A DNA stretch of 64,000 nt, from positions 14,213 through 78,212 of the forward strand of contig JBBQYX010000005.1 of NCBI GenBank assembly GCA_038208295.1, read 5' to 3'. The notes under the pieces are model-generated. The model ran no database searches. It had not been told where the DNA came from and was given only the letters and a program-made list of their open reading frames with translations. The translations under genes were made by a program, and so were the position numbers. This DNA comes from Candidatus Nanopelagicales bacterium. Its GTDB lineage: Bacteria > Actinomycetota > Actinomycetes > S36-B12 > JBBQYX01. Position 1 is the first letter of the stretch. Each line of letters starts with the position of its first letter. This document shows positions 19,009-62,839 of the stretch, piece after piece.

Positions 19009-21338
19009 TCCGTGACCAGCGTCGCTACCCATACCAGCAACGCTCCCACGCCACCGGCGGCCAGCGCGACCAGGCCGTCCTCGTCATAGGACGGGCTCAG
19101 CGCGAACATGTTGGACAGGAAGGGCACGAACAGGACCAGCAGGAACATCGCCACCATGAGGGCCACGATGGCCAGCCGGATCCCGTTCAACGGTCGGGCG
19201 GACTGCACCAGCACGGTCGTGGTCACGATGAACAGCGTGATGGTGGCCGTCACCCGGGAGGATTCGATGGAATCCGAGCCGACGGTCAGGCTGAGGTAGT
19301 AGGCGACGAAGGCGCTGGCGGCCGCGATCAGTCCCGCCGGCGCCGCGAACAGGACCACCCGCTTGAAGAAGCCCGGGCGGAAGCGTTCGGTGTTGGGCAT
19401 GAGCGCGAGGAAGAACCCGGGTATGCCGATGGTCAGCGCACTGATCAGCGACAGGTGCCGCGGCAGGAAGGGGAACGGGACCGTGAACACGCCGGTCGCG
19501 ATGGCGAGCACCATCGCGTAAAACGACTTGGTCAGGAAGACATCGGACACCCGTTCGATGTTCCCCAGGACCCGACGACCCTCGGCCACCACACTGGGCA
19601 TCACCGAGAACTTGTTGTCCATCAGCACGATCTGGGCGACCGCCCGGGTCGCCGCCGATCCCGACCCCATGGCGATGCCCAGGTCCGCACTCTTCAGCGC
19701 GAGGACGTCGTTGACGCCGTCTCCGGTCATCGCGACCGTATGCCCGCTGTGGTGCAGGGCGTCCACCATCTGCTGTTTCTGGGCAGGTGTGACGCGTCCG
19801 AACACGCTGTGGGTCTCCAGGACGGCGGCCAGCTCGGCGGTGTCGGTCGGCAGCTCCCTGGCATCGACCGGGTCCTGCGCCCGCGGGATCCCCGCCCGGG
19901 CGGCGATGGCGCCCACCGTCACCGGGTTGTCCCCGGAGATCACCTTCAGTTCCACACCCTGGCTCAGGAAGTACGCCACCGTGTCGGGGACGTCCGGGCG
20001 TAACGCCTGGTCGATGACGACCAGCGCCGCCGCGCGCAGCGGTCCAGTCCCCTCTTCTGGGTCCGGCCCCTTGCCATCGGCCGCGGTGGATCGGGCCAGC
20101 AGCAGAACCCTCGCCCCACCGGCGGCCTGCTCATCGGCCAACGCCCGAGCCGGGTCGTCCGCGGGCAGCAGGATCTCCGGAGCACCCAGCAGCCAGCTGC
20201 CCTGCCCGTCGAACGTCGCGGCGGACCATTTGCGGGCGCTGGAGAACGGCACGGTGGCCGTCAACTCCCAACCGCCTGGAGCCTCGTAGGCACTGGCCAC
20301 CGCCGCCAGGGTGGGGTTCGGGCTGTCCTCGCTGCCCCCCAGGGCCCCCAGCGCTGCCGCCACCGGTGCCGCCTCGTCCAGGCGGATCACGTCGCGCACC
20401 TGCATCCCGGGCTGGGTCAGAGTGCCGGTTTTGTCCACGCAGACCGTGTCGACGCGCGCCAGGATCTCCACCGCTGGCATCTCCTGAACCAAGGCTTTGC
20501 GCCCGGCCAGCCGGATGACCGCAACGGCCATCGCGATACTCGTCAGCAACACCAGCCCTTCGGGCACCATCGTCACCATCCCGGCGATTGCGCCGCGGAT
20601 GGCATCGCGCAGGCTCTGGTCGCTGTGCAGCTGGGACCACAGCAGGAGCCCCCCGATGGGGAGCAGGAAGTACGACACGATCCGGATGAACCGCATGATC
20701 GAGTCACGCAGCTCTGATTCGGATAAAACGTACTTCTTGGCCTCGGCGGTCAGCCCGGCAGCGAAGGAGTCGCGACCGATCCGGGTGGCCCGGTAGACCC
20801 CCGAGCCCGCCACCACGAACGACCCGGACATGGCCTGGTCGCCGACCGCCTTGTCCACCGGGTCGGCCTCGCCGGTGAGCAGACTCTCGTCGATCTCCAG
20901 GCCGGTCTCGACCAGGACCTCCCCGTCGACGACGAGTTGGTCGCCGGGGCGCAGCACGATCACGTCGTCCAGGACAACCTGCGGCGGCGAGATCTCCTCC
21001 TCGCGGCCGTCGCGGCGGACCAGCGGCCGAACCTCGCCGAGCACCGACAGTTTCGCCAGCGCCCGCGCCGCCCGGTATTCCTGGATGATCCCGATGCCGG
21101 TGTTGGCCAGGATGACGAAACCGAACAGCGAGTCCTGCCACGGCGCCACGATGATCATGACGATCCACAGCGAGCCGAGCAGCGCGTTGAACCAGGTGAA
21201 GGTGTTGGCCCGGACGATGTCGCCGAGGCTGCGGCCGTGGACGTCGGGGGCGTCGTTGACCTGCCCGTTCGCGACCCGCTCGGCGACCTGCGCGGCGCTC
21301 AGCCCACGGGCGACGGTGTTGTCAACGTCGTGGATCAT
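18990..21338 (-). CDS. cation-translocating P-type ATPase (P2-like, CtpE-like)
   Basis: Inner ATG 21338 (MIHDVDNTVARGLSAAQVAERVANGQVN) of ORF 18990..21908. Motifs LTGEADPV, MVPEGL, CVDKTGTLT and MTGDGVNDVLALK. Confidence 0.9.
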   Translation of the reverse strand: MIHDVDNTVARGLSAAQVAERVANGQVNDAPDVHGRSLGDIVRANTFTWFNALLGSLWIVMIIVAPWQDSLFGFVILANTGIGIIQEYRAARALAKLSVLGEVRPLVRRDGREEEISPPQVVLDDVIVLRPGDQLVVDGEVLVETGLEIDESLLTGEADPVDKAVGDQAMSGSFVVAGSGVYRATRIGRDSFAAGLTAEAKKYVLSESELRDSIMRFIRIVSYFLLPIGGLLLWSQLHSDQSLRDAIRGAIAGMVTMVPEGLVLLTSIAMAVAVIRLAGRKALVQEMPAVEILARVDTVCVDKTGTLTQPGMQVRDVIRLDEAAPVAAALGALGGSEDSPNPTLAAVASAYEAPGGWELTATVPFSSARKWSAATFDGQGSWLLGAPEILLPADDPARALADEQAAGGARVLLLARSTAADGKGPDPEEGTGPLRAAALVVIDQALRPDVPDTVAYFLSQGVELKVISGDNPVTVGAIAARAGIPRAQDPVDARELPTDTAELAAVLETHSVFGRVTPAQKQQMVDALHHSGHTVAMTGDGVNDVLALKSADLGIAMGSGSAATRAVAQIVLMDNKFSVMPSVVAEGRRVLGNIERVSDVFLTKSFYAMVLAIATGVFTVPFPFLPRHLSLISALTIGIPGFFLALMPNTERFRPGFFKRVVLFAAPAGLIAAASAFVAYYLSLTVGSDSIESSRVTATITLFIVTTTVLVQSARPLNGIRLAIVALMVAMFLLVLFVPFLSNMFALSPSYDEDGLVALAAGGVGALLVWVATLVTDRWRRP

Positions 21339-45591: not shown

Positions 45592-46281
45592 TCACAGCAG
45601 CGTTGGGACACTGGTCAATCGCAGCGGCGGTGGGGTGACCCAGCGCTGCACGACTGCCAGGACGAGCTCGGTGACAACGCTGAGCAACGCGACGAGCACG
45701 ACGCCGGCCAGCAGCAGGGTGGTGTCCTGACGCCCGAAACCGTCCACGACGTAGCGGCCGAGTCCGCCACCACCGACCAAGGCGGCGAGCGTCGCGGTGG
45801 CAACAACCTGGACCACCGCGGTACGTGCCCCGGCGGCGAGCAGCGGGACGGCCATCGGAAACTCGACGCGCCGCAGCACCTGCCCGCCGGTCATGCCCAT
45901 CCCGCGCGCGGCGTCCAGGCTGTCGGGGTCCACGTCGCGGATGCCGACGTAGGTGTTGGTCAGCAACGGCGGGATGGCGAAGACGGCCAGCGCGACGATC
46001 GCGGCGGTGTTGCTGACACCGATGCTGTCCCAGGACGCCAGGATGACCAGCACGGCAAACACCGGGACCGCCCGACCGAGGTTGCCCAGCGTGGTGATCA
46101 GGCCGCCGAAGCGGCGCAGATGTCCGGTGATCACACCCGTTGGAATCGCGATCACGGCGGCCGCGAGCAGGGCGTACGCGCTGATCTGCAGATGCTCCAG
46201 GAGCCGGGCCGGGACGCCTTCGGCCCCGGACCAGTTGTCCGGATCGGTGAACCACGCAATCAGACCGCTCAAGAGGATCAC
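45592..46281 (-). CDS. ABC transporter permease (Opu/Pro type)
   Basis: GTG 46281 overlaps the upstream permease stop (GTGA). BPD_transp_1 EAA-like region DAARGMGMTGGQVLRRVEFPMAVP. Confidence 0.88.
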   Translation of the reverse strand: MILLSGLIAWFTDPDNWSGAEGVPARLLEHLQISAYALLAAAVIAIPTGVITGHLRRFGGLITTLGNLGRAVPVFAVLVILASWDSIGVSNTAAIVALAVFAIPPLLTNTYVGIRDVDPDSLDAARGMGMTGGQVLRRVEFPMAVPLLAAGARTAVVQVVATATLAALVGGGGLGRYVVDGFGRQDTTLLLAGVVLVALLSVVTELVLAVVQRWVTPPPLRLTSVPTLL

Positions 46282-46985
46282 CCAACCGTCGCACGGGCCC
46301 GGGCCCAGGGGGTAAGCACCCGTTCCAGGCCCAGCAGGGCCACCTCGAAGGCCACCGCGAGAACGACACACGCCAACGTCGCCGTCATGATCTTGGCGTG
46401 GTAGAAGTTGTCGACGAACCCCCCGAGGATCATGGTGCCGAAGCCGCCGTGGCCGACCAGCGCACCGATGGTGACCAGACCGACGGTGGACACCGTCGCC
46501 AACCGCACCCCCGCCAGGATCGAGGGCAGCGCAAGCGGCACCTCGACCCGCCAGAGCAACCGGTTGCGGCCGTACCCCATCCCGACGGCGGCATCGACCA
46601 CATCGACGGGCACCCCGGCGAGGCCGACCAGCATGTTGCGCAGCACGATCAGCAGCGCGTACACCGCCAGGGCGACGATCACCGTCACCGGCGACAGGCC
46701 GAAGACCGGCCACAGGACGGTGATCAGCGCGAGCGACGGGATCGTATAGAGGATCCCGGAGACCCCGAGCACTGCCGGCTCCAGCCGCCGGTAGCGTCGC
46801 ACCAGGACCGTCACCGGCAGCGCCACCAGGATCGCCAGCAGCACCGACGCGATCGTGATCACGATGTGCTCACGGCCAGCGGTCAGGAGTTCGCCGGTGT
46901 GCTCGCGCACATAGGTGAGGTCGAACCAGGGGTTCGGCGGCGGCTCGTAGCCGTCCAGAGCCCGCACACCGATCGCGAGGAGCAC
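46278..46985 (-). CDS. ABC transporter permease (Opu/Pro type)
   Basis: 235 aa. DAAVGMGYGRNRLLWRVEVPLALP. The start is uncertain (46985, 46967 or 46910). Confidence 0.85.
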   Translation of the reverse strand: MLLAIGVRALDGYEPPPNPWFDLTYVREHTGELLTAGREHIVITIASVLLAILVALPVTVLVRRYRRLEPAVLGVSGILYTIPSLALITVLWPVFGLSPVTVIVALAVYALLIVLRNMLVGLAGVPVDVVDAAVGMGYGRNRLLWRVEVPLALPSILAGVRLATVSTVGLVTIGALVGHGGFGTMILGGFVDNFYHAKIMTATLACVVLAVAFEVALLGLERVLTPWARARATVG

Positions 46986-46987
46986 GG

Positions 46988-47962
46988 GTGGACGCTACCC
47001 CGCAGGCGATGATCCGCCTGGACGGAGTGCGCAAGGAGTATCCCGACGGCACCGTCGCGGTGCACGAGTTGTCCCTGACGGTCGGCGTCGGCGAGATCTG
47101 TGTCCTGGTCGGGCCGTCCGGCTGCGGCAAGACGACCACCATGCGGATGATCAACAGGCTGGTGGAGCCCAGCGCCGGCGTCATCGAGATCGACGGGCAG
47201 GACATCACCGCGGTCGACCGGGTCGAGTTGCGGCGGCGGATCGGGTACGTGATCCAACAAGTCGGCCTGTTTCCGCACCAGACGGTCCGCAAGAACGTGG
47301 CGACCGTCTGCGACCTGCTGGGCTGGGACAAGCGGCGTACCCGCGACCGGGTCGACGAGTTGCTCAGCCTGGTCGGCCTGGAACCAGCGAAATACGGTGA
47401 CCGCTACCCGCATCAGCTGTCCGGCGGCCAGCGCCAGCGGGTCGGCGTCGCCCGCGCGTTGGCCGCCGATCCGCCGGTGCTGCTGATGGACGAGCCGTTC
47501 GGCGCGGTCGACCCGATCGCCCGCGACCGGTTGCAGGCGGAGTTCCTGAAACTGCAGGAGCAGGTCCACAAGACCGTCGTGTTCGTCACTCACGACATCG
47601 ACGAGGCGGTCCGCCTCGGCGACCGCATCGCGGTGATGCGCCAGGGCGGCTGGCTGGAGCAGTACGCCGCCCCCGCGGTCATCCTGGGTGCGCCCGCGAC
47701 GGACTTCGTGGCCGGCTTCGTGGGCAGTGACCGTACGGTCAAGCGGCTGGCCGTCACCCCGGTTGCGGCCGACGCCCTCGATCCGCTGGACGACGATGCC
47801 GCGACGCTGCCCCGGGTGCCAGATGACGCCACCCTGCGCGATGCGCTGGCAGCTTTGCTGGAGTCCCCCGACGGGCGCGCGGTCGTGATGGACGAGGACG
47901 GCGCCGACGGGGTGCTGAGCCTGGACGGCCTACGCCGGATCATGGCTCGCCCGCCGGTCTGA
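46988..47962 (+). CDS. ABC transporter ATP-binding protein (OpuCA/ProV-like, C-terminal CBS-like region)
   Basis: Walker A GPSGCGKTT, signature LSGGQRQR, Walker B LLMDEPFGAVD. The likely true start is ATG 47009 (MIRLDGV). Confidence 0.92.
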   Translation: MDATPQAMIRLDGVRKEYPDGTVAVHELSLTVGVGEICVLVGPSGCGKTTTMRMINRLVEPSAGVIEIDGQDITAVDRVELRRRIGYVIQQVGLFPHQTVRKNVATVCDLLGWDKRRTRDRVDELLSLVGLEPAKYGDRYPHQLSGGQRQRVGVARALAADPPVLLMDEPFGAVDPIARDRLQAEFLKLQEQVHKTVVFVTHDIDEAVRLGDRIAVMRQGGWLEQYAAPAVILGAPATDFVAGFVGSDRTVKRLAVTPVAADALDPLDDDAATLPRVPDDATLRDALAALLESPDGRAVVMDEDGADGVLSLDGLRRIMARPPV

Positions 47963-58270: not shown

Positions 58271-58465
58271 TGCACCTCCCCGCGCCGCTCCCGTACCGCC
58301 GAGCGGCCATCATCGGTCACGACCTGGGCGTTCCGGTATTCCAGGCCGCTGGCAGCCGATCCTCCCCCGCTCGGCGTGCCCGACGGCCGGCCGAGACGAT
58401 GTGACCCGGCGGGTGCGGGAGACTGTGCGCCACGCCCGTCCCGACGCCGTGTCCGAGGAGTCCCC

Positions 58466-58981
58466 GTGGAGCCGCTGCAATTCGATGTGACCGTCGAGAT
58501 CCCCGCCGGAAGCCGCAACAAGTATGAGGTGGACCACCACACCGGTCGGATCAGGCTGGACCGGATGCTGTTCACGTCCACGCGCTACCCGCACGACTAC
58601 GGGTTCATCGACGACACTCTCGGCTTGGACAGCGACCCGCTGGACGCTCTGGTCATCCTGGAGGAGCCGACGTTCCCCGGGTGCGTCATCCGCTGCCGGG
58701 CGATCGGGATGTTCCGCATGACCGACGAGGCGGGTGGGGACGATAAGGTCCTGTGCGTGCCGGTGGCCGATCCCCGGATCGAGCATCTGCGCGACATCCA
58801 CCATGTCTCGGAGTTCGACCGCCTGGAGATCCAGCACTTCTTCGGCGTCTACAAGGACCTCGAACCCGGCAAGTCGGTCGAGGGTGCGGAATGGGTGGGC
58901 CGCACCGAGGCCGAGGCGGAGGTCCGCGCGTCGTTCGAGCGCAAGCGGGCCCAGGACGACGTCGAGATCGTCCGCCACTGA
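58466..58981 (+). CDS. ppa: inorganic pyrophosphatase
   Basis: GTG 58466 with GAGGAG at 58455. [30 protein letters not shown]-like DSDPLDALV. Confidence 0.95.
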
Positions 58982-58993
58982 GGAAGGCGCAAC

Positions 58994-59043
58994 GCGACCG
59001 GCGCCGCCGGGGCCTGCTCCGGCCGGGTGACGGCGCCGGTCGC
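58994..59043. terminator. hairpin between convergent ppa and the dsrE-like gene
   Basis: 13-bp stem GCGACCGGCGCCG / CGGCGCCGGTCGC with a 24-nt loop. Confidence 0.55.
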
Positions 59044-59056
59044 GTCCAACTCGACG

Positions 59057-59587
59057 TCAGATGAACAGCAACTGCGCGCCGGTGGTGAGTTCGATGAAGT
59101 CCGCTGCGCTGATGATGCCCTCGACCCCCTCGAACAGGTCGTTCTCGGTCATTTTCATCATGTCCGCGGATAGCCGACAGGCCCAGAGATGACCCCCGGC
59201 GTCAACGATCTGCTGCAGGAAATCCGGCACCTCTGGCACACCGAGATCGGCGATCTGCTTCTTCATCATCGAGGTCGCCATGGCCTGCATGCCCGGTAGG
59301 CCGCCGACGAGCTGCGGGACCCGGACGCCGCCGAGCTGCTCCATGTGCATGGCGGTATTGCCTACGGGGGTAAATTTCAGGTCCCGCATCCGCGACTTAG
59401 CGATCATGTCCAAGCCCCAGAAGGTGAAGAAGAGGTGCAGTTCGACGCCCTCCCCCAGAGCCGCATTGCCCATGATCAACCCTGGGTAGGCCATGTCCAG
59501 GTTGCCCTTTGAGCAGATGATGGCCAGTTTGCGCTCGTCGTCGTCGTCGCCGAACGACGGGATGATGGCTTGCGATTTCTCGCTCAT
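59057..59587 (-). CDS. DsrE/DsrF-family sulfur-relay-like protein
   Basis: 176 aa. KLAIICSKGNLDMAYPGLIMGNAA...HLFFTFWGLDM...GGHLWACRLSADMM is typical of the DsrE-like (COG2210) family. GAGGAG lies upstream. Confidence 0.85.
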   Translation of the reverse strand: MSEKSQAIIPSFGDDDDERKLAIICSKGNLDMAYPGLIMGNAALGEGVELHLFFTFWGLDMIAKSRMRDLKFTPVGNTAMHMEQLGGVRVPQLVGGLPGMQAMATSMMKKQIADLGVPEVPDFLQQIVDAGGHLWACRLSADMMKMTENDLFEGVEGIISAADFIELTTGAQLLFI

Positions 59588-59638
59588 GCGAGTTCTCCTC
59601 GGTTGTTGCGGACGTTCGGCAGGCTGCCTCGAGCGGGT

Positions 59639-59953
59639 TCAGACGCACCCACGCGGCTTCGGCAAACCCGCGATGTACGCCATCTTCTTGGCGGGCTTCT
59701 TCGGGAACAGCGCGAACTGCTGTTTCGTCGGGACGCCGCCGACGGCCTGGACGCGGCGCGTCGTGGCCGTTTCTCCCTGCACCGCGAAGTCCTCGCGCAG
59801 GAAGTGGATGACCTTCCAATGCTCGTCCGCCAACTCGATGGCGATGTTGGCGGCGAGCACCTTGGCGAGGTCTTCGTCCCACTCGGAGAACTCGGTCAGG
59901 AAACCTTCCGCGTCGACGTGGACGTCGCGACCGTTGATCGTGGTGACGGGCAT
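59639..59953 (-). CDS. TusE/DsrC-family sulfur carrier (single C-terminal Cys)
   Basis: Inner ATG 59953 (104 aa). EHWKVIHFLREDF...AYIAGLPKPRGCV carries the family signature with the penultimate Cys. Confidence 0.88.
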   Translation of the reverse strand: MPVTTINGRDVHVDAEGFLTEFSEWDEDLAKVLAANIAIELADEHWKVIHFLREDFAVQGETATTRRVQAVGGVPTKQQFALFPKKPAKKMAYIAGLPKPRGCV

Positions 59954-60005
59954 GTCGGACAACTCCCTTGCATTGGAGAGAACGAGCGAAATGGATGGAG
60001 CCGCG

Positions 60006-60668
60006 TCACGGCCGGAATCCGAGTTGACGGACGACCTGAAGCGCCCGGCCCAGGCCACGCCGGGTCGCCGGATCACGGACCTGGCCGGCGAGCGCGAGCA
60101 GCGAGGGCGGCGCTTCGGGCGCATCGGCTGCCAGCGGCACCAGGAGTTGGCCCACCAGCGTCAGGACACGTTCGTCGGCCAGCGCCCGCAGCAGGGCGAC
60201 GACTCGGGGGGCGGCGGCGATCGCCGCGGCGGCGTCGTCCTCGCAGTACTCGGCGACCACGGCCTCGGCTAATTGCCGGACGCCGCGGGCGGCGCTGAAC
60301 CAGCCGGTCCGCTCCGCCTCGGCGAGCACCTCCGAGACCTTCGCCACACCGGCTCCGCTGATCGACGTGACCTCTTCGATCAACTCCGCCAGGCTGTCCA
60401 GGGTGACTAGCATCGCCTCCAGCTTGGGTAGTGATCGGGCGGCGGTACGCAAGAATCGGACCGCGTCGTCCACCGTGACGTCATCGGCCAGGTCGCCCAA
60501 CTCCCGGCTGGCCACGTCGAAGGCGTCGCGGGTGACCGGCACGAGGGTGTGAGCCAGTTCCTGCCACTTCTCCTTCTCCTGGCGCTGGCAGCGCAGCTCG
60601 GCCGAGATCTCGTCGATCTGAGCCGACATCCGGGCCAGCTGGTCGCTCACCGGTTCGGTCGCGGCCAT
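60006..60668 (-). CDS. DUF1641 domain protein
   Basis: Start at ATG 60668, or GTG 60677 overlapping the upstream stop. The C-terminal SLLALAGQVRDPATRRGLGRALQVVRQLG matches the remembered DUF1641 signature. Confidence 0.8.
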   Translation of the reverse strand: MAATEPVSDQLARMSAQIDEISAELRCQRQEKEKWQELAHTLVPVTRDAFDVASRELGDLADDVTVDDAVRFLRTAARSLPKLEAMLVTLDSLAELIEEVTSISGAGVAKVSEVLAEAERTGWFSAARGVRQLAEAVVAEYCEDDAAAAIAAAPRVVALLRALADERVLTLVGQLLVPLAADAPEAPPSLLALAGQVRDPATRRGLGRALQVVRQLGFRP

Positions 60669-60673
60669 CGCGG

Positions 60674-61912
60674 TCACGACAGGTCCTCGGTCTGCTTGCC
60701 AGCCATCGACATCAGCGCCGGCAGCGGCAGCTCCTTGCCAGGCAGCAGAATGTTCCAGTACATCCAACGGAACATCACTTTGCCCCAGTGATTCATCTCG
60801 GTCTCCTTCAGCAGGCTGAAGGGGCCGATCCCGGGCAACGGGTACTTGCCGGGCAACGGTTCGGTTTCGTAGTTGAAGTCGATCAGCAGACCCTTGCCGT
60901 GACCCGTCTCGATGAAGCAGTTGGCGTGGCCATCGAAGCGCTCGGTCATGTGAAGTCCGGCGATGTGCCGCATGAAGTTGGCGCCGAAGAGATCCATCGC
61001 GAAGTGGGCCACTGAGCCGGCCTTGGATGCCGGGATGTTGGAGGCGTCCCCGACGGCGAAGATGTTGTCGTACTGGGTGGACAGCAGGGTTTCCTTGTCC
61101 ACCGGCACGTAGTTCAGCTCGTCGCCGAGACCGGACTTGGCAATGTAGTCAGCTCCCATGTTGACCGGCACCGTGACCAACATGTCGTAGGCGATCTCGC
61201 GCTCGTCGTAGGACACGATGCTCTTCGCCTGCGGGTCGATGCTCTCCACCATGAAGTCCGACTCCAGCGTGATGCCGCGTTCGGTGAGCATGCTGCCGAG
61301 GTACTTCGAGGACACCGGCTTGGTGAACGCGCCGGGCAGCGGCGTCACGTATGTCATCTCAACCTTGTCACGCATCCCCTGCTCGGCGAAGAAGGCGTCG
61401 GCGAGGAACGTGAACTCCAGCGGGGCGACCGGACATTTGATCGGCATCTCCGCAATGTGCACCACCAGTTTGCCGCCGGGCCAGGTCTTGAGCGACTCGG
61501 CCAGCCGAGTGGCACCCGCGTACGTGTAGAACTCGTGGACGCTGCCGCCCATGTCCTCGGCCATTCCGGGCGTCTCGTCCGGTCGCGGCGTCGTACCGGT
61601 CGCGATGATGAGGTAGTCGTAGCCCAGCCTCGTGCCGTCGCCCAGCAGGACGCTGTTCTCCTCGGGGAACACCTGCTCGATCTGCGCCTGGATCAGGTCC
61701 ACCCCGGATGGGATGAAGCGCTTGCTGGGTTTCTTCACCTCGTCCGGTCGGTAGATCCCGAACGGGATGAAGAGGTAGCCCGGTTGGTAATAGTGGGTGT
61801 CGCTGGCGTCGACGACCGTGATCTTCCATTCGTCGCGCGGCAGCATCGGACGCAGTTTGTTCACCGCCATCGTGCCCGCGGTACCGGTGCCGAGGACGAG
61901 CAGCCGATTCAT
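60674..61912 (-). CDS. FAD-dependent pyridine nucleotide-disulfide oxidoreductase, sulfide:quinone oxidoreductase-like
   Basis: Inner ATG 61912 with GGAGG upstream (412 aa). GTGTAG dinucleotide fold, IKCPVAPLEF, FAVGDA, HANCFIETG, and a C-terminal amphipathic tail HWGKVMFRWMYWNILL. Confidence 0.85.
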   Translation of the reverse strand: MNRLLVLGTGTAGTMAVNKLRPMLPRDEWKITVVDASDTHYYQPGYLFIPFGIYRPDEVKKPSKRFIPSGVDLIQAQIEQVFPEENSVLLGDGTRLGYDYLIIATGTTPRPDETPGMAEDMGGSVHEFYTYAGATRLAESLKTWPGGKLVVHIAEMPIKCPVAPLEFTFLADAFFAEQGMRDKVEMTYVTPLPGAFTKPVSSKYLGSMLTERGITLESDFMVESIDPQAKSIVSYDEREIAYDMLVTVPVNMGADYIAKSGLGDELNYVPVDKETLLSTQYDNIFAVGDASNIPASKAGSVAHFAMDLFGANFMRHIAGLHMTERFDGHANCFIETGHGKGLLIDFNYETEPLPGKYPLPGIGPFSLLKETEMNHWGKVMFRWMYWNILLPGKELPLPALMSMAGKQTEDLS

Positions 61913-61934
61913 GGGTTCTACCTCCGGGTCATGG

Positions 61935-62666
61935 TCACGCGGGTAAACGGGATGAGGTCCGAGCGCCACCCGCGGGCGCGGACACGGCCCGGGACAGCGC
62001 TGCGGCGACAGTGGGCAATGCGTTCAGCACCATTGCCCTGCGTACGGGGTCCAGTTGGTAGAGGTCCGAGGCGGGATCGCCTGCGGGCGCGATCCCGCCG
62101 ACGAGCACCATGCCGATCAGTTCCCGGCCGACCCGGATGAAGGAGCGGGCGCACTCGAAGCCGAGATGTCCCACCGAGAAGCGGGCCTGCAGGTCGACAT
62201 CCTCGGCTAGCGCGCGCCACTCGGCCGCGCAGGAGGCGACGACGTCCGGGTCGTCACCGGATGCCACGAAGCGCGGGCACGGGTTGAACACCCGGGTGAC
62301 CGGGTGAGCGGCCATGTCGGTCACGACCAGCATCACCCCGAGCAGGTCGGCGGCCAGTTCCATGATGATCGAGACCAGGTCGGAGCCCAGGGCCGCTACT
62401 GCCTCGAGTGCCGGGGTGGTCGCGCCGCTCGGCGACTCGGTTGTGGCCGGGCTGCCCGTGCGGCCCCAGCGGTCGTCGGACACGGGTACGGGGCCGGTGG
62501 CCCGAAGGAGTTCCTGCAGCCGGTCGGCCGGGAACCGCCATTGCCGACCGACCTTGATCGCGGGCAGCCGGCCGTCCGCAGCCATCCGGTACACCGTGGA
62601 CGCATCGACGGACAGCAGGTCCTGCACCTCCGCGACGGTGAGCGGGGGTGGCTGGGAGCGAGGCAC
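61935..62666 (-). CDS. transcriptional regulator: excisionase/MerR-type HTH fused to a PocR sensory domain
   Basis: LTVAEVQDLLSVDASTVYRMAADGRLPAIKVGRQWRF (HTH_17), then NPCPRFV...C...GHLGFECARSFIRVGRELIGMVLVGG (PocR pattern). Confidence 0.8.
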   Translation of the reverse strand: MPRSQPPPLTVAEVQDLLSVDASTVYRMAADGRLPAIKVGRQWRFPADRLQELLRATGPVPVSDDRWGRTGSPATTESPSGATTPALEAVAALGSDLVSIIMELAADLLGVMLVVTDMAAHPVTRVFNPCPRFVASGDDPDVVASCAAEWRALAEDVDLQARFSVGHLGFECARSFIRVGRELIGMVLVGGIAPAGDPASDLYQLDPVRRAMVLNALPTVAAALSRAVSAPAGGARTSSRLPA

Positions 62667-62839
62667 ACCTGCAGGTTATGCGGGAGATGTGGGTCTATGC
62701 AGGGTCGAATGGCCTGAGCTCACATGATGTGGGCAGTATTCTGCAGTTTGTACCCGGAAGTGCCTACTCCTGCGTGGCCGACCCATGTCGTCACGATGGC
62801 AGCGTGCGTCGGGCCGCACGGCACGGCAGGATCGCGCGC

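Follow-up and report, generated by a model that had tools for sequence, protein, structure and literature searches.

We analysed a window of 64,000 nucleotides (the whole stretch of DNA considered here) from Candidatus Nanopelagicales bacterium, a member of the Actinomycetota, and focused on a five-gene locus on its minus strand. The locus encodes a putative regulator (REG), a flavoprotein that its sequence places among the type III sulfide:quinone oxidoreductases (SQRs), a protein of the DUF1641 family and two small proteins related to the sulfur carriers DsrC/TusE and DsrE2, and it belongs to a large, recognisable family of SQR cassettes. On balance we lean towards the interpretation that the five genes form a self-contained cassette for sulfide oxidation and detoxification, in which the SQR would oxidise sulfide, the DUF1641 protein would provide access to menaquinone, the two carriers would accept the persulfide and REG would control the set. 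The five-gene form adds two features that we did not find described in the literature searched, namely a DUF1641 protein linked to an SQR and a sensor-bearing BldC-type regulator associated with 9-bp arrays. The open reading frames (ORFs) confirm the coordinates and gaps of a first-pass annotation of this DNA, and its reading of the five minus-strand genes as one operon is supported:

62666..61935, minus strand: REG regulator gene, 243 amino acids
61912..60674, minus strand: SQR gene (assigned to type III sulfide:quinone oxidoreductases), 412 amino acids
60677 (GTG start, 223 amino acids) or 60668 (ATG start)..60006, minus strand: DUF1641 gene
59953..59639, minus strand: DsrC/TusE-like gene, 104 amino acids
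59587..59057, minus strand: DsrE2-like gene, 176 amino acids

From REG to the DsrE2-like gene the genes are separated by 22 bp, by a GTGA overlap (or, with the ATG start at 60668, a gap of 5 bp), by 52 bp and by 51 bp. Database proteins identical to the 243-, 412-, 104- and 176-residue products and to a 223-residue DUF1641 product all come from one NCBI contig; the DUF1641 product on record thus starts at GTG 60677. Shine-Dalgarno-like sequences precede four of the five genes and none is found before REG.

The assignment of the flavoprotein rests on several lines of sequence comparison. The protein scores 632 bits against NF049943, the NCBIfam model for type III SQR (cut-off 525), covering model positions 2-406 of 406. 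Its closest solved structure is the type II enzyme human SQOR (E=5e-45, residues 4-392), a match that spans the full length and takes in the C-terminal membrane helices; like human SQOR it contains two catalytic cysteines and no others. These two residues, C160 (IKCPVAPLEF) and C332 (HANCFIETG), had been singled out by the first-pass annotation as resembling an SQR redox pair, and both do align with the catalytic cysteines of human SQOR in the motifs PVKCAGAP and YTSCPLVTG. They are invariant in 81/81 SQR sequences and agree with the canonical type III catalytic pair, Cys159/Cys339 (PMC13047784). An amphipathic tail occupies approximately residues 356-400 at the C-terminus. NDH-2 structures (5na1, 4nwz and 9pxk_C) match only residues 3-120, the N-terminal FAD fold, with E values of 5e-7 to 5e-6, and an NDH-2 identity was rejected on the grounds that full-length similarity, including the second (NADH) dinucleotide-binding domain, is lacking. 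Taken together, these comparisons identify the flavoprotein as a type III SQR. The NF049943 model is named for a 'selenoprotein subtype'; in the window SQR both catalytic positions are Cys and the gene lacks an in-frame TGA, and presumably some of its relatives use selenocysteine.

The genes surrounding the SQR are arranged in a highly conserved manner. A scan of one genome per GTDB species gave at least 561 confirmed relatives, from which the best 80 (61-84% identity) were kept; these loci come from Actinomycetes, Acidimicrobiia and Chloroflexota. Their stop-to-stop ORFs were searched with iterated profiles of the five window proteins, and the 63 loci with enough flanking sequence were counted as complete. 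The DsrC-like gene and then the DsrE2-like gene directly follow SQR in 63/63 complete loci, from both Actinomycetota and Chloroflexota. A DUF1641 gene lies between SQR and the DsrC-like gene in 34/63, and REG lies directly upstream of SQR in 30/63. The latter two genes tend to occur together: 28 loci have both, 27 have neither, six have DUF1641 only and two have REG only (Fisher p = 8e-10, ignoring phylogeny). The constant presence of the SQR, TusE-like and DsrE2-like genes and the joint presence of REG and DUF1641 therefore define a three-gene core with an optional two-gene accessory set, and the window carries the full five-gene form. The neighbourhood co-conservation that the first-pass annotation had proposed to check is thus borne out, and as a module the SQR-carrier-DsrE2 core is both conserved and very widespread.

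That annotation had also stated that no characterised pathway with this gene set was known. This was overstated, given the presence of the core in every complete locus and a related operon in Methylacidiphilum; the family of cassettes itself is uncharacterised. In M. fumariolicum SolV, the type III SQR-TusA-DsrE2 operon MFUM_v2_0219-0221 is up approximately 1.7-fold in sulfide-adapted cells oxidising H2S to S0 (PMC10205796). The window locus resembles this operon in that a small sulfur carrier and then a DsrE2-type protein come directly after a type III SQR. It differs in that the carrier is a single-Cys member of the DsrC/TusE family rather than TusA and in that DUF1641 and a dedicated regulator are added. 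Type III SQRs in general, as in Caldivirga maquilingensis, count with this operon among the closest known systems.

The two small proteins of the core are of the sulfur-carrier type. Pfam searches recovered DsrC (PF04358, 108 bits) and DrsE_2 (PF13686, 111 bits) for these two proteins and DUF1641 (23.2 bits) for the product of the gene beside them. The DsrC/TusE-like protein also matches TIGR03342 (TusE/DsrC/DsvC) at 81.3 bits against a cut-off of 53.5, and falls below the TusE equivalog NF008562 (70.6 bits versus 191). It ends in PKPRGCV with a single, penultimate cysteine, Cys103, which is invariant in 77/77 sequences, upholding the earlier description of a single-Cys DsrC/TusE protein. In alignment to 1sau and 1yx3, the position of the second DsrC cysteine (CysB, approximately 10 residues before the penultimate CysA) is occupied by Met91. 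DsrC sensu stricto requires two conserved arm cysteines and was rejected for this protein, which is TusE-like and, unlike DsrC, cannot form the DsrC trisulfide. The last gene of the operon encodes a DsrE-family protein, as previously annotated, a putative sulfurtransferase whose nearest solved structures are 2qs7 and 3pnx, the former described in the literature as DsrE2B. Among 70 orthologues its C137 (HLWAC137R) is conserved in 100% and C25 in 90%.

The adjacency of a DsrE-superfamily gene and a TusE/DsrC-family gene reproduces known donor-acceptor pairs, TusD to TusE and DsrE to DsrC. Transfer from DsrEFH to DsrC is established (PMC3397948), with its direction, DsrE to DsrC, known from Allochromatium vinosum. 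The window proteins share with the Tus and Dsr relays (TusBCD to TusE; Rhd to TusA to DsrEFH to DsrC) the pairing of these two families and a penultimate Cys on a C-terminal arm. Unlike in those relays, the DsrE member is a single DrsE_2/DsrE2-type gene rather than DsrEFH or TusBCD, and DsrAB, MnmA, rhodanese and TusA were not found near the cassette; tusBCD was likewise not found there. More broadly, no rhodanese, TusA, persulfide dioxygenase (PDO), Hdr or Dsr gene was found among the genes within approximately 10 kb, in keeping with what the first-pass annotation had reported. Human SQOR requires an external thiophilic acceptor. Because the window SQR has only its two catalytic cysteines, the most economical inference, by analogy with the human enzyme, is that the two carriers accept its sulfane sulfur. 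The acceptor of human SQOR is a small molecule (glutathione or sulfite), whereas dedicated protein thiols are proposed here.

Two points that the first-pass annotation missed are the most informative about the locus: the DUF1641 protein belongs to a structurally characterised family of quinone-transport scaffolds that includes ForE, Ncp and HucM, and 9-bp repeats lie upstream of REG. The PF07849 match of the DUF1641 protein (cut-off 21) lies at its C-terminus, at residues 183-217, and an RDPxxRRGL core is kept in 43 orthologues. A profile of 22 SQR-linked orthologues detects ForE1 (8rqz) with E=5e-5 over profile positions 108-226 (approximately 120 positions), and detects YjlC/Ncp (9snk/9pxk) more weakly, with E=0.005-0.013 and in the C-terminal part only. 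ForE is needed for menaquinone binding and for the formate:menadione activity of ForC (PMC8808070). In Bacillus subtilis, Ncp/YjlC and NDH-2 form a 4:4 tube-like complex that sequesters lipids and menaquinone and contacts the membrane via a positively charged DUF1641 head, and HucM plays an equivalent role in the Huc hydrogenase (PMC13524794). In our literature search neither these papers nor any other that contains 'DUF1641' links the family to SQR, and pairing it with sulfide or SQR brought up no functional link; a proteomics table does list an adjacent pair of a DUF1641 protein and a FAD-dependent pyridine nucleotide-disulfide oxidoreductase in Ignicoccus.

The window protein is thus similar to its counterparts in Ndh-Ncp, ForCE and Huc as a small all-helical protein with a terminal DUF1641 domain that is encoded beside a quinone-reducing enzyme. 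Its predicted partner is instead an SQR, which resembles NDH-2 in being a monotopic flavoprotein whose C-terminal region serves as a membrane or partner interface. Further differences are its length (approximately 220 residues versus 140-186) and, relative to Ndh-Ncp, its occurrence in Actinomycetota and Chloroflexota rather than Bacillota; an oligomer, a lumen and lipid or quinone binding are predictions for the window protein.

Sequence evidence connects the DUF1641 protein to the SQR. The two genes share 4 or 1 nt where SQR stops and DUF1641 starts in 29/41 related loci, and GTGA in the window, which supports the translational coupling that had been claimed for these genes. Additionally, the SQR differs between loci that have DUF1641 (DUF1641+) and loci that do not (DUF1641-). 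When SQR positions were ranked by a total-variation score, 11 of the 22 with a score of at least 0.55 were in residues 356-412. Glutamate at position 372 is present in 42/44 DUF1641+ loci and in 1/33 DUF1641- loci, M380 contrasts with A or G, and E/D394 contrasts with P; positions 372, 376 and 380 are spaced i, i+4, i+8. E372 also tracks the presence of DUF1641 in seven of the eight taxa whose DUF1641 state disagrees with their placement in the SQR tree. The SQR tail (356-400) carries a net charge of +1.7 in DUF1641+ loci versus +4.3 in DUF1641- loci (p=1e-13, ignoring phylogeny), and the DUF1641 core has a charge of +3.4 inside a protein of net charge -12. The charge shift and the covariation suggest that the membrane-contact role may have passed from the SQR tail to the DUF1641 head, as described for Ndh-Ncp.

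REG, the other member of the accessory set, has an excisionase-type DNA-binding domain (HTH_17, 55.5 bits; TIGR01764, 50.6 bits against a cut-off of 28.8) and is not a member of the BldC subfamily (HTH_BldC, 23 bits against 77). Its confident AlphaFold2 model, with a predicted local distance difference test score (pLDDT) of 85.4, shows a winged helix-turn-helix (wHTH) at residues 1-56 that a disordered linker joins to an alpha/beta sensor domain at residues 85-230. The top Foldseek matches are IclR-family regulators and the GAF domains of CodY, SpoVT and DosT, and the model suggests that the C-terminal domain is a GAF/PAS-like (PocR-like) sensor. The earlier label, a PocR-HTH regulator, was right about the HTH; the PocR part is borderline, with 20.6 bits against a cut-off of 23.9 for PF10114 and a PF10114 match in about half of the listed homologues. 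All 63 homologues compared keep the sensor-domain residues C146 and C172, and at least 90% keep C130.

The DNA upstream of REG contains a distinctive repeat. In the 250 bp upstream of REG in 37 related loci, TGCA(G/T) occurs 118 times against 14.9 ± 4.0 in shuffled sequences, an 8-fold excess. Successive motifs are spaced by exactly 9 bp in 36 cases, with 18, 19 and 28 bp the next commonest spacings, and form chains of two to six units (for example in related loci L038, L023, L037, L067, L078 and L003). The unit has the consensus aNATGCA(G/T)a and is directional, with 54 ATGCAG versus 18 CTGCAT. The motifs are spread over the three frames relative to the REG start without preference (49/35/34), which marks them as DNA elements rather than parts of a repetitive coding sequence. 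For this reason, and because the arrays end in different frames, we rejected the idea that ATGCAG repeats encode an (MQx)n leader peptide or an N-terminal extension. The region upstream of SQR in 41 loci that lack REG has 0.44 motifs per locus and no 9-bp pair. BldC is the prototype of small MerR-like/excisionase-type wHTH regulators; on its arrays of variable length, protomers bind head-to-tail, one to each 9-bp direct repeat (PMC5859096), and by this analogy the ATGCA(G/T) arrays are the putative operator of REG. Both proteins have an HTH_17/excisionase-type wHTH, and the 9-bp unit and variable number of the repeats upstream of REG would fit the binding mode of BldC. Unlike BldC, a 68-residue stand-alone wHTH that recognises AATTNNNNC, REG adds the Cys-bearing GAF/PAS-like domain and has the putative repeat core ATGCA(G/T). 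The corresponding elements in the window are:

62667..62839: divergent intergenic region between REG and the Rce1-like/CPBP protease gene, containing the repeats and a weak DosR-box-like element
62664..62701, minus strand: degenerate TGCA(G/T) array (TGCAT at 62701-62697, CGCAT at 62682-62678, TGCAG at 62673-62669) that abuts the REG start; putative REG operator

An additional TGCAG is located at 62745-62741. A sigma-70 consensus scan of 62667..62839 gave no match, sigma-70 and terminator consensus scans being uninformative for a high-GC host.

Two further classes of palindrome were found upstream of related cassettes. A DosR-box-like palindrome, GGGAC-N4-GTCCC with at least 9/10 matches, occurs in 29 of 78 upstream regions versus 1.5 expected, and lies 50-140 bp before the first cassette gene in loci with and without REG (L012, CTAGGGACTTTGGTCCCGGC; also L030, L017 and L025). 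DosR itself reads GGGACT/TGTCCC (PMC13486717). The window copy at 62702-62714, GGCCATTCGACCC, is weak. As sequence elements, these boxes suggest hypoxia or redox control by a NarL-family regulator. The second class, ATACCCC..GGGGTAT with a GC core and AT flanks, was seen in at least 14 of 44 loci without REG, at 10-125 bp before SQR (L062, ACCCCCGGGGGT; L012/L013, TATACCCTGGGGGGTAT; L053 and L057), and resembles CsoR/CstR-type operators. A search with a signature regular expression found no CsoR/CstR-like gene within 7 kb of these palindromes.

Based on these results we propose the following scheme. The type III SQR would oxidise H2S at its Cys160/Cys332-FAD site and pass two electrons to menaquinone. 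The DUF1641 protein would be made in a fixed ratio with the SQR via the start/stop overlap and would act as an SQR subunit, in the way that NDH-2 has Ncp, formate dehydrogenase has ForE and the Huc hydrogenase has HucM. We envisage an all-helical oligomer whose basic C-terminal head touches the membrane and gives the SQR access to quinone. Because the SQR has two cysteines only, its sulfane sulfur would be handed to protein thiols, the candidates being Cys137 of the DsrE2-like protein and Cys103 on the flexible C-terminus of the TusE-like protein, in a hand-off that would copy those of TusD to TusE and DsrE to DsrC and would avoid the release of free polysulfide. REG would bind the ATGCA(G/T) 9-bp direct repeats head-to-tail via its BldC-type wHTH, with the Cys-bearing GAF/PAS-like domain as its sensor, probably of reactive sulfur or of redox state. 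Complex formation, the quinone conduit, persulfide transfer and the signal sensed by REG are the parts of this scheme that we infer. The earlier description of the locus as a sulfur relay is right in outline, as a sulfide-linked SQR with persulfide carriers. More tentatively, it is possible that SQR and DUF1641 make up a fourth kind of quinone-transport complex built on DUF1641, next to Huc, ForCE and Ndh-Ncp, with obligatory off-loading of persulfide to the DsrE2-like and TusE-like proteins and under the control of a sensor-bearing BldC relative that polymerises on 9-bp repeats.

Several observations weigh against this scheme. The DUF1641+ SQRs fall largely into one clade, and shared ancestry makes the figures for covariation and charge look stronger than they are. 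In both classes of loci the SQR tail is still aromatic and amphipathic, and direct membrane binding by the tail may persist. About half of the related loci do without DUF1641; SQR function as such thus does not depend on it. The DUF1641 protein, modelled as a monomer, is all-helical, but the model is poor (pLDDT 49.7), and a Foldseek search with it returned no structural match. Both carriers score below the NCBIfam equivalog cut-offs (NF047629, 123 versus 210 bits, for the DsrE2-like protein), and the DsrE2 proteins studied elsewhere are without a demonstrated function. Finally, the repeat array in the window itself is degenerate, with three exact motifs, one near-motif and a single 9-bp step.

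Some of these points lend themselves to other explanations, which we weighed against the proposed scheme. DUF1641 could be a stabilising or assembly factor, or a membrane tether, that has no quinone lumen, the SQR taking quinone from the bilayer via its own tail. The retention of the aromatic amphipathic tail in DUF1641+ loci, the absence of DUF1641 from 27-29 of the 63 complete loci and the first description of ForE as an 'essential subunit' for stability and activity (PMC8808070) would all fit. We nevertheless regard this as rather unlikely, as all three structurally studied DUF1641 partners (HucM, ForE and Ncp) are reported to mediate quinone access, and the shift in SQR tail charge suggests that membrane contact has moved to the DUF1641 partner. 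A more radical proposal concerns the flavoprotein, which could act in vivo as an NDH-2-like enzyme or as a quinol-dependent persulfide or polysulfide reductase on the carrier persulfides. NDH-2 is a family with a shown DUF1641 partner and shares with SQR the superfamily of flavoproteins with two dinucleotide-binding domains. This idea strikes us as highly improbable given a score above the type III SQR cut-off, NDH-2 matches (E ~1e-6) confined to residues 3-120, and the invariance of both cysteines, with a catalytic Cys in the loop of the NDH-2 NADH-binding motif.

The cassette could also serve mainly to mobilise sulfur, in assimilation or trafficking: the SQR would load the TusE-like and DsrE2-like proteins with sulfane sulfur from sulfide that is bound for thiolated tRNA, cofactors or cysteine, and neither detoxification nor energy would be the main purpose. 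A role in tRNA thiolation is known for TusE and TusD homologues, PDO, rhodanese and a sulfite exporter were not found near the cassette, and the cassette is present in Nanopelagicales-type genomes. However, no biosynthetic acceptor gene is conserved beside the cassette in the 80 loci, the one physiological observation on a related operon is its induction while sulfide is being oxidised to S0, and the DosR-like and CsoR-like boxes upstream of related loci point to stress or redox control; we therefore consider this explanation unlikely. A separate question is whether the locus is a recently acquired foreign island, as the first-pass annotation implied when it took a distinct origin from GC content. 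Its hand counts of GC were exact (0.61 at 61021-61120 and 0.73 at 20001-20100), the operon has 65.9% GC versus 69.6% for the remaining window, near the minimum of all 3.6-kb windows, and the cassette is found in unrelated genomic contexts across taxa. In contrast, the GC content at third codon positions is 0.85-0.90 for the five genes, within the host range of 0.78-0.91, and the deficit is located in the first and second codon positions of the strongly conserved SQR, DsrC-like and DsrE2-like genes. The low GC of the operon thus comes from the amino acids that its proteins use, not from a foreign choice of codons, a recent foreign origin lacks support, and with no integrase, tRNA or repeat boundary seen, we judge a foreign island to be very unlikely.

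The sulfide-linked interpretation that we favour places the locus beside other clusters that join SQR to a carrier and a regulator. Like cstR-cstA-cstB-sqr of Staphylococcus aureus and yrkD...nreBC-sqr-pdo of Bacillus licheniformis, the five-gene locus clusters SQR with a DsrE-type carrier and a regulator; the Firmicute clusters feature both DsrE- and TusA-type carriers and a regulator responsive to sulfane sulfur. The B. licheniformis sqr cluster is under dual control by a CstR-type repressor, which senses sulfane sulfur, and a NarL-family response regulator (PMC9918477), a situation with which the CsoR-like palindromes and DosR-like boxes of the related loci may be compared. Unlike the Firmicute clusters, the locus has no PDO, rhodanese or TauE, has another SQR type and another regulator family, and contains DUF1641.

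The surroundings of the cassette are otherwise unremarkable. Neighbours within approximately 10 kb are of the housekeeping kind (Rce1-like/CPBP, FemAB, ppa, DacB, a zincin-like peptidase, hpt, FtsH, FolE and FolP), and an Rfam scan gave nothing at E<=1. The first-pass annotation had bounded the operon by a terminator hairpin and a divergent promoter region, and the hairpin and the divergent intergenic region are both real:

58992..59045: GC-rich hairpin with perfect 15-nt arms (58992-59006 and 59031-59045), between the convergent dsrE2-like and ppa genes

The hairpin has a predicted free energy of -49.9 kcal/mol (z = -3.97), and 0/200 shuffled sequences were equally stable. It has no T-run (U-tract) and was not called by the consensus terminator scan; it is a probable bidirectional terminator of the kind that lacks a U-tract.

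Across the 80 related loci there are no further conserved sulfur genes or other conserved neighbours, the commonest extra neighbour occurring in 11/80. Those seen, each in at most 11/80 loci, are an ABC ATPase, a USP-like protein, DUF302, WhiB, TrpD and ppa. The ppa gene adjoins the window cassette in convergent orientation (58376-58981) and is located upstream on the same strand in five other loci (for example L077, 5109-5684), which hints at a semi-conserved insertion neighbourhood in some Actinomycetes. A family of ORFs of approximately 176 residues, DUF302-like by eye, lies directly 3' of the dsrE2-like gene in five loci (L025, L029, L032, L051 and L079), and a tandem universal-stress-protein-like ORF, also judged by eye, lies downstream in nine. 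Two loci have a second, divergent SQR-like ORF (195-258 bits with the SQR profile) approximately 4-5 kb upstream on the opposite strand (L009, 1763-3262, minus strand; L080, 1895-3280, minus strand). In the 1-kb composition profile of the window, an isolated AT-skew peak (+0.288) at 46001-47000 stands far above the remaining sequence.

Type III SQRs are the least understood class of SQR, and the cassette offers a compact, genetically isolated system for studying how persulfide is removed from a two-Cys SQR in organisms that lack glutathione. It raises the question of whether the DUF1641 conduit principle, beyond hydrogenase, formate dehydrogenase and NDH-2, reaches a second family of monotopic flavoproteins, and how a BldC-type DNA-binding domain behaves once it is joined to a domain that senses a ligand or redox state. 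Loci with and without DUF1641 and REG serve as natural, built-in controls, with SQR residues E372, W376, M380 and E394 as specific positions to address. If SQR and DUF1641 do form a quinone-transport complex, sulfide oxidation by Actinomycetota and Chloroflexota would become a further case of a protein conduit for quinone. The cassette is common among the abundant Actinomycetota of fresh water and soils, and it may therefore contribute to heterotrophic sulfide oxidation in the environment.

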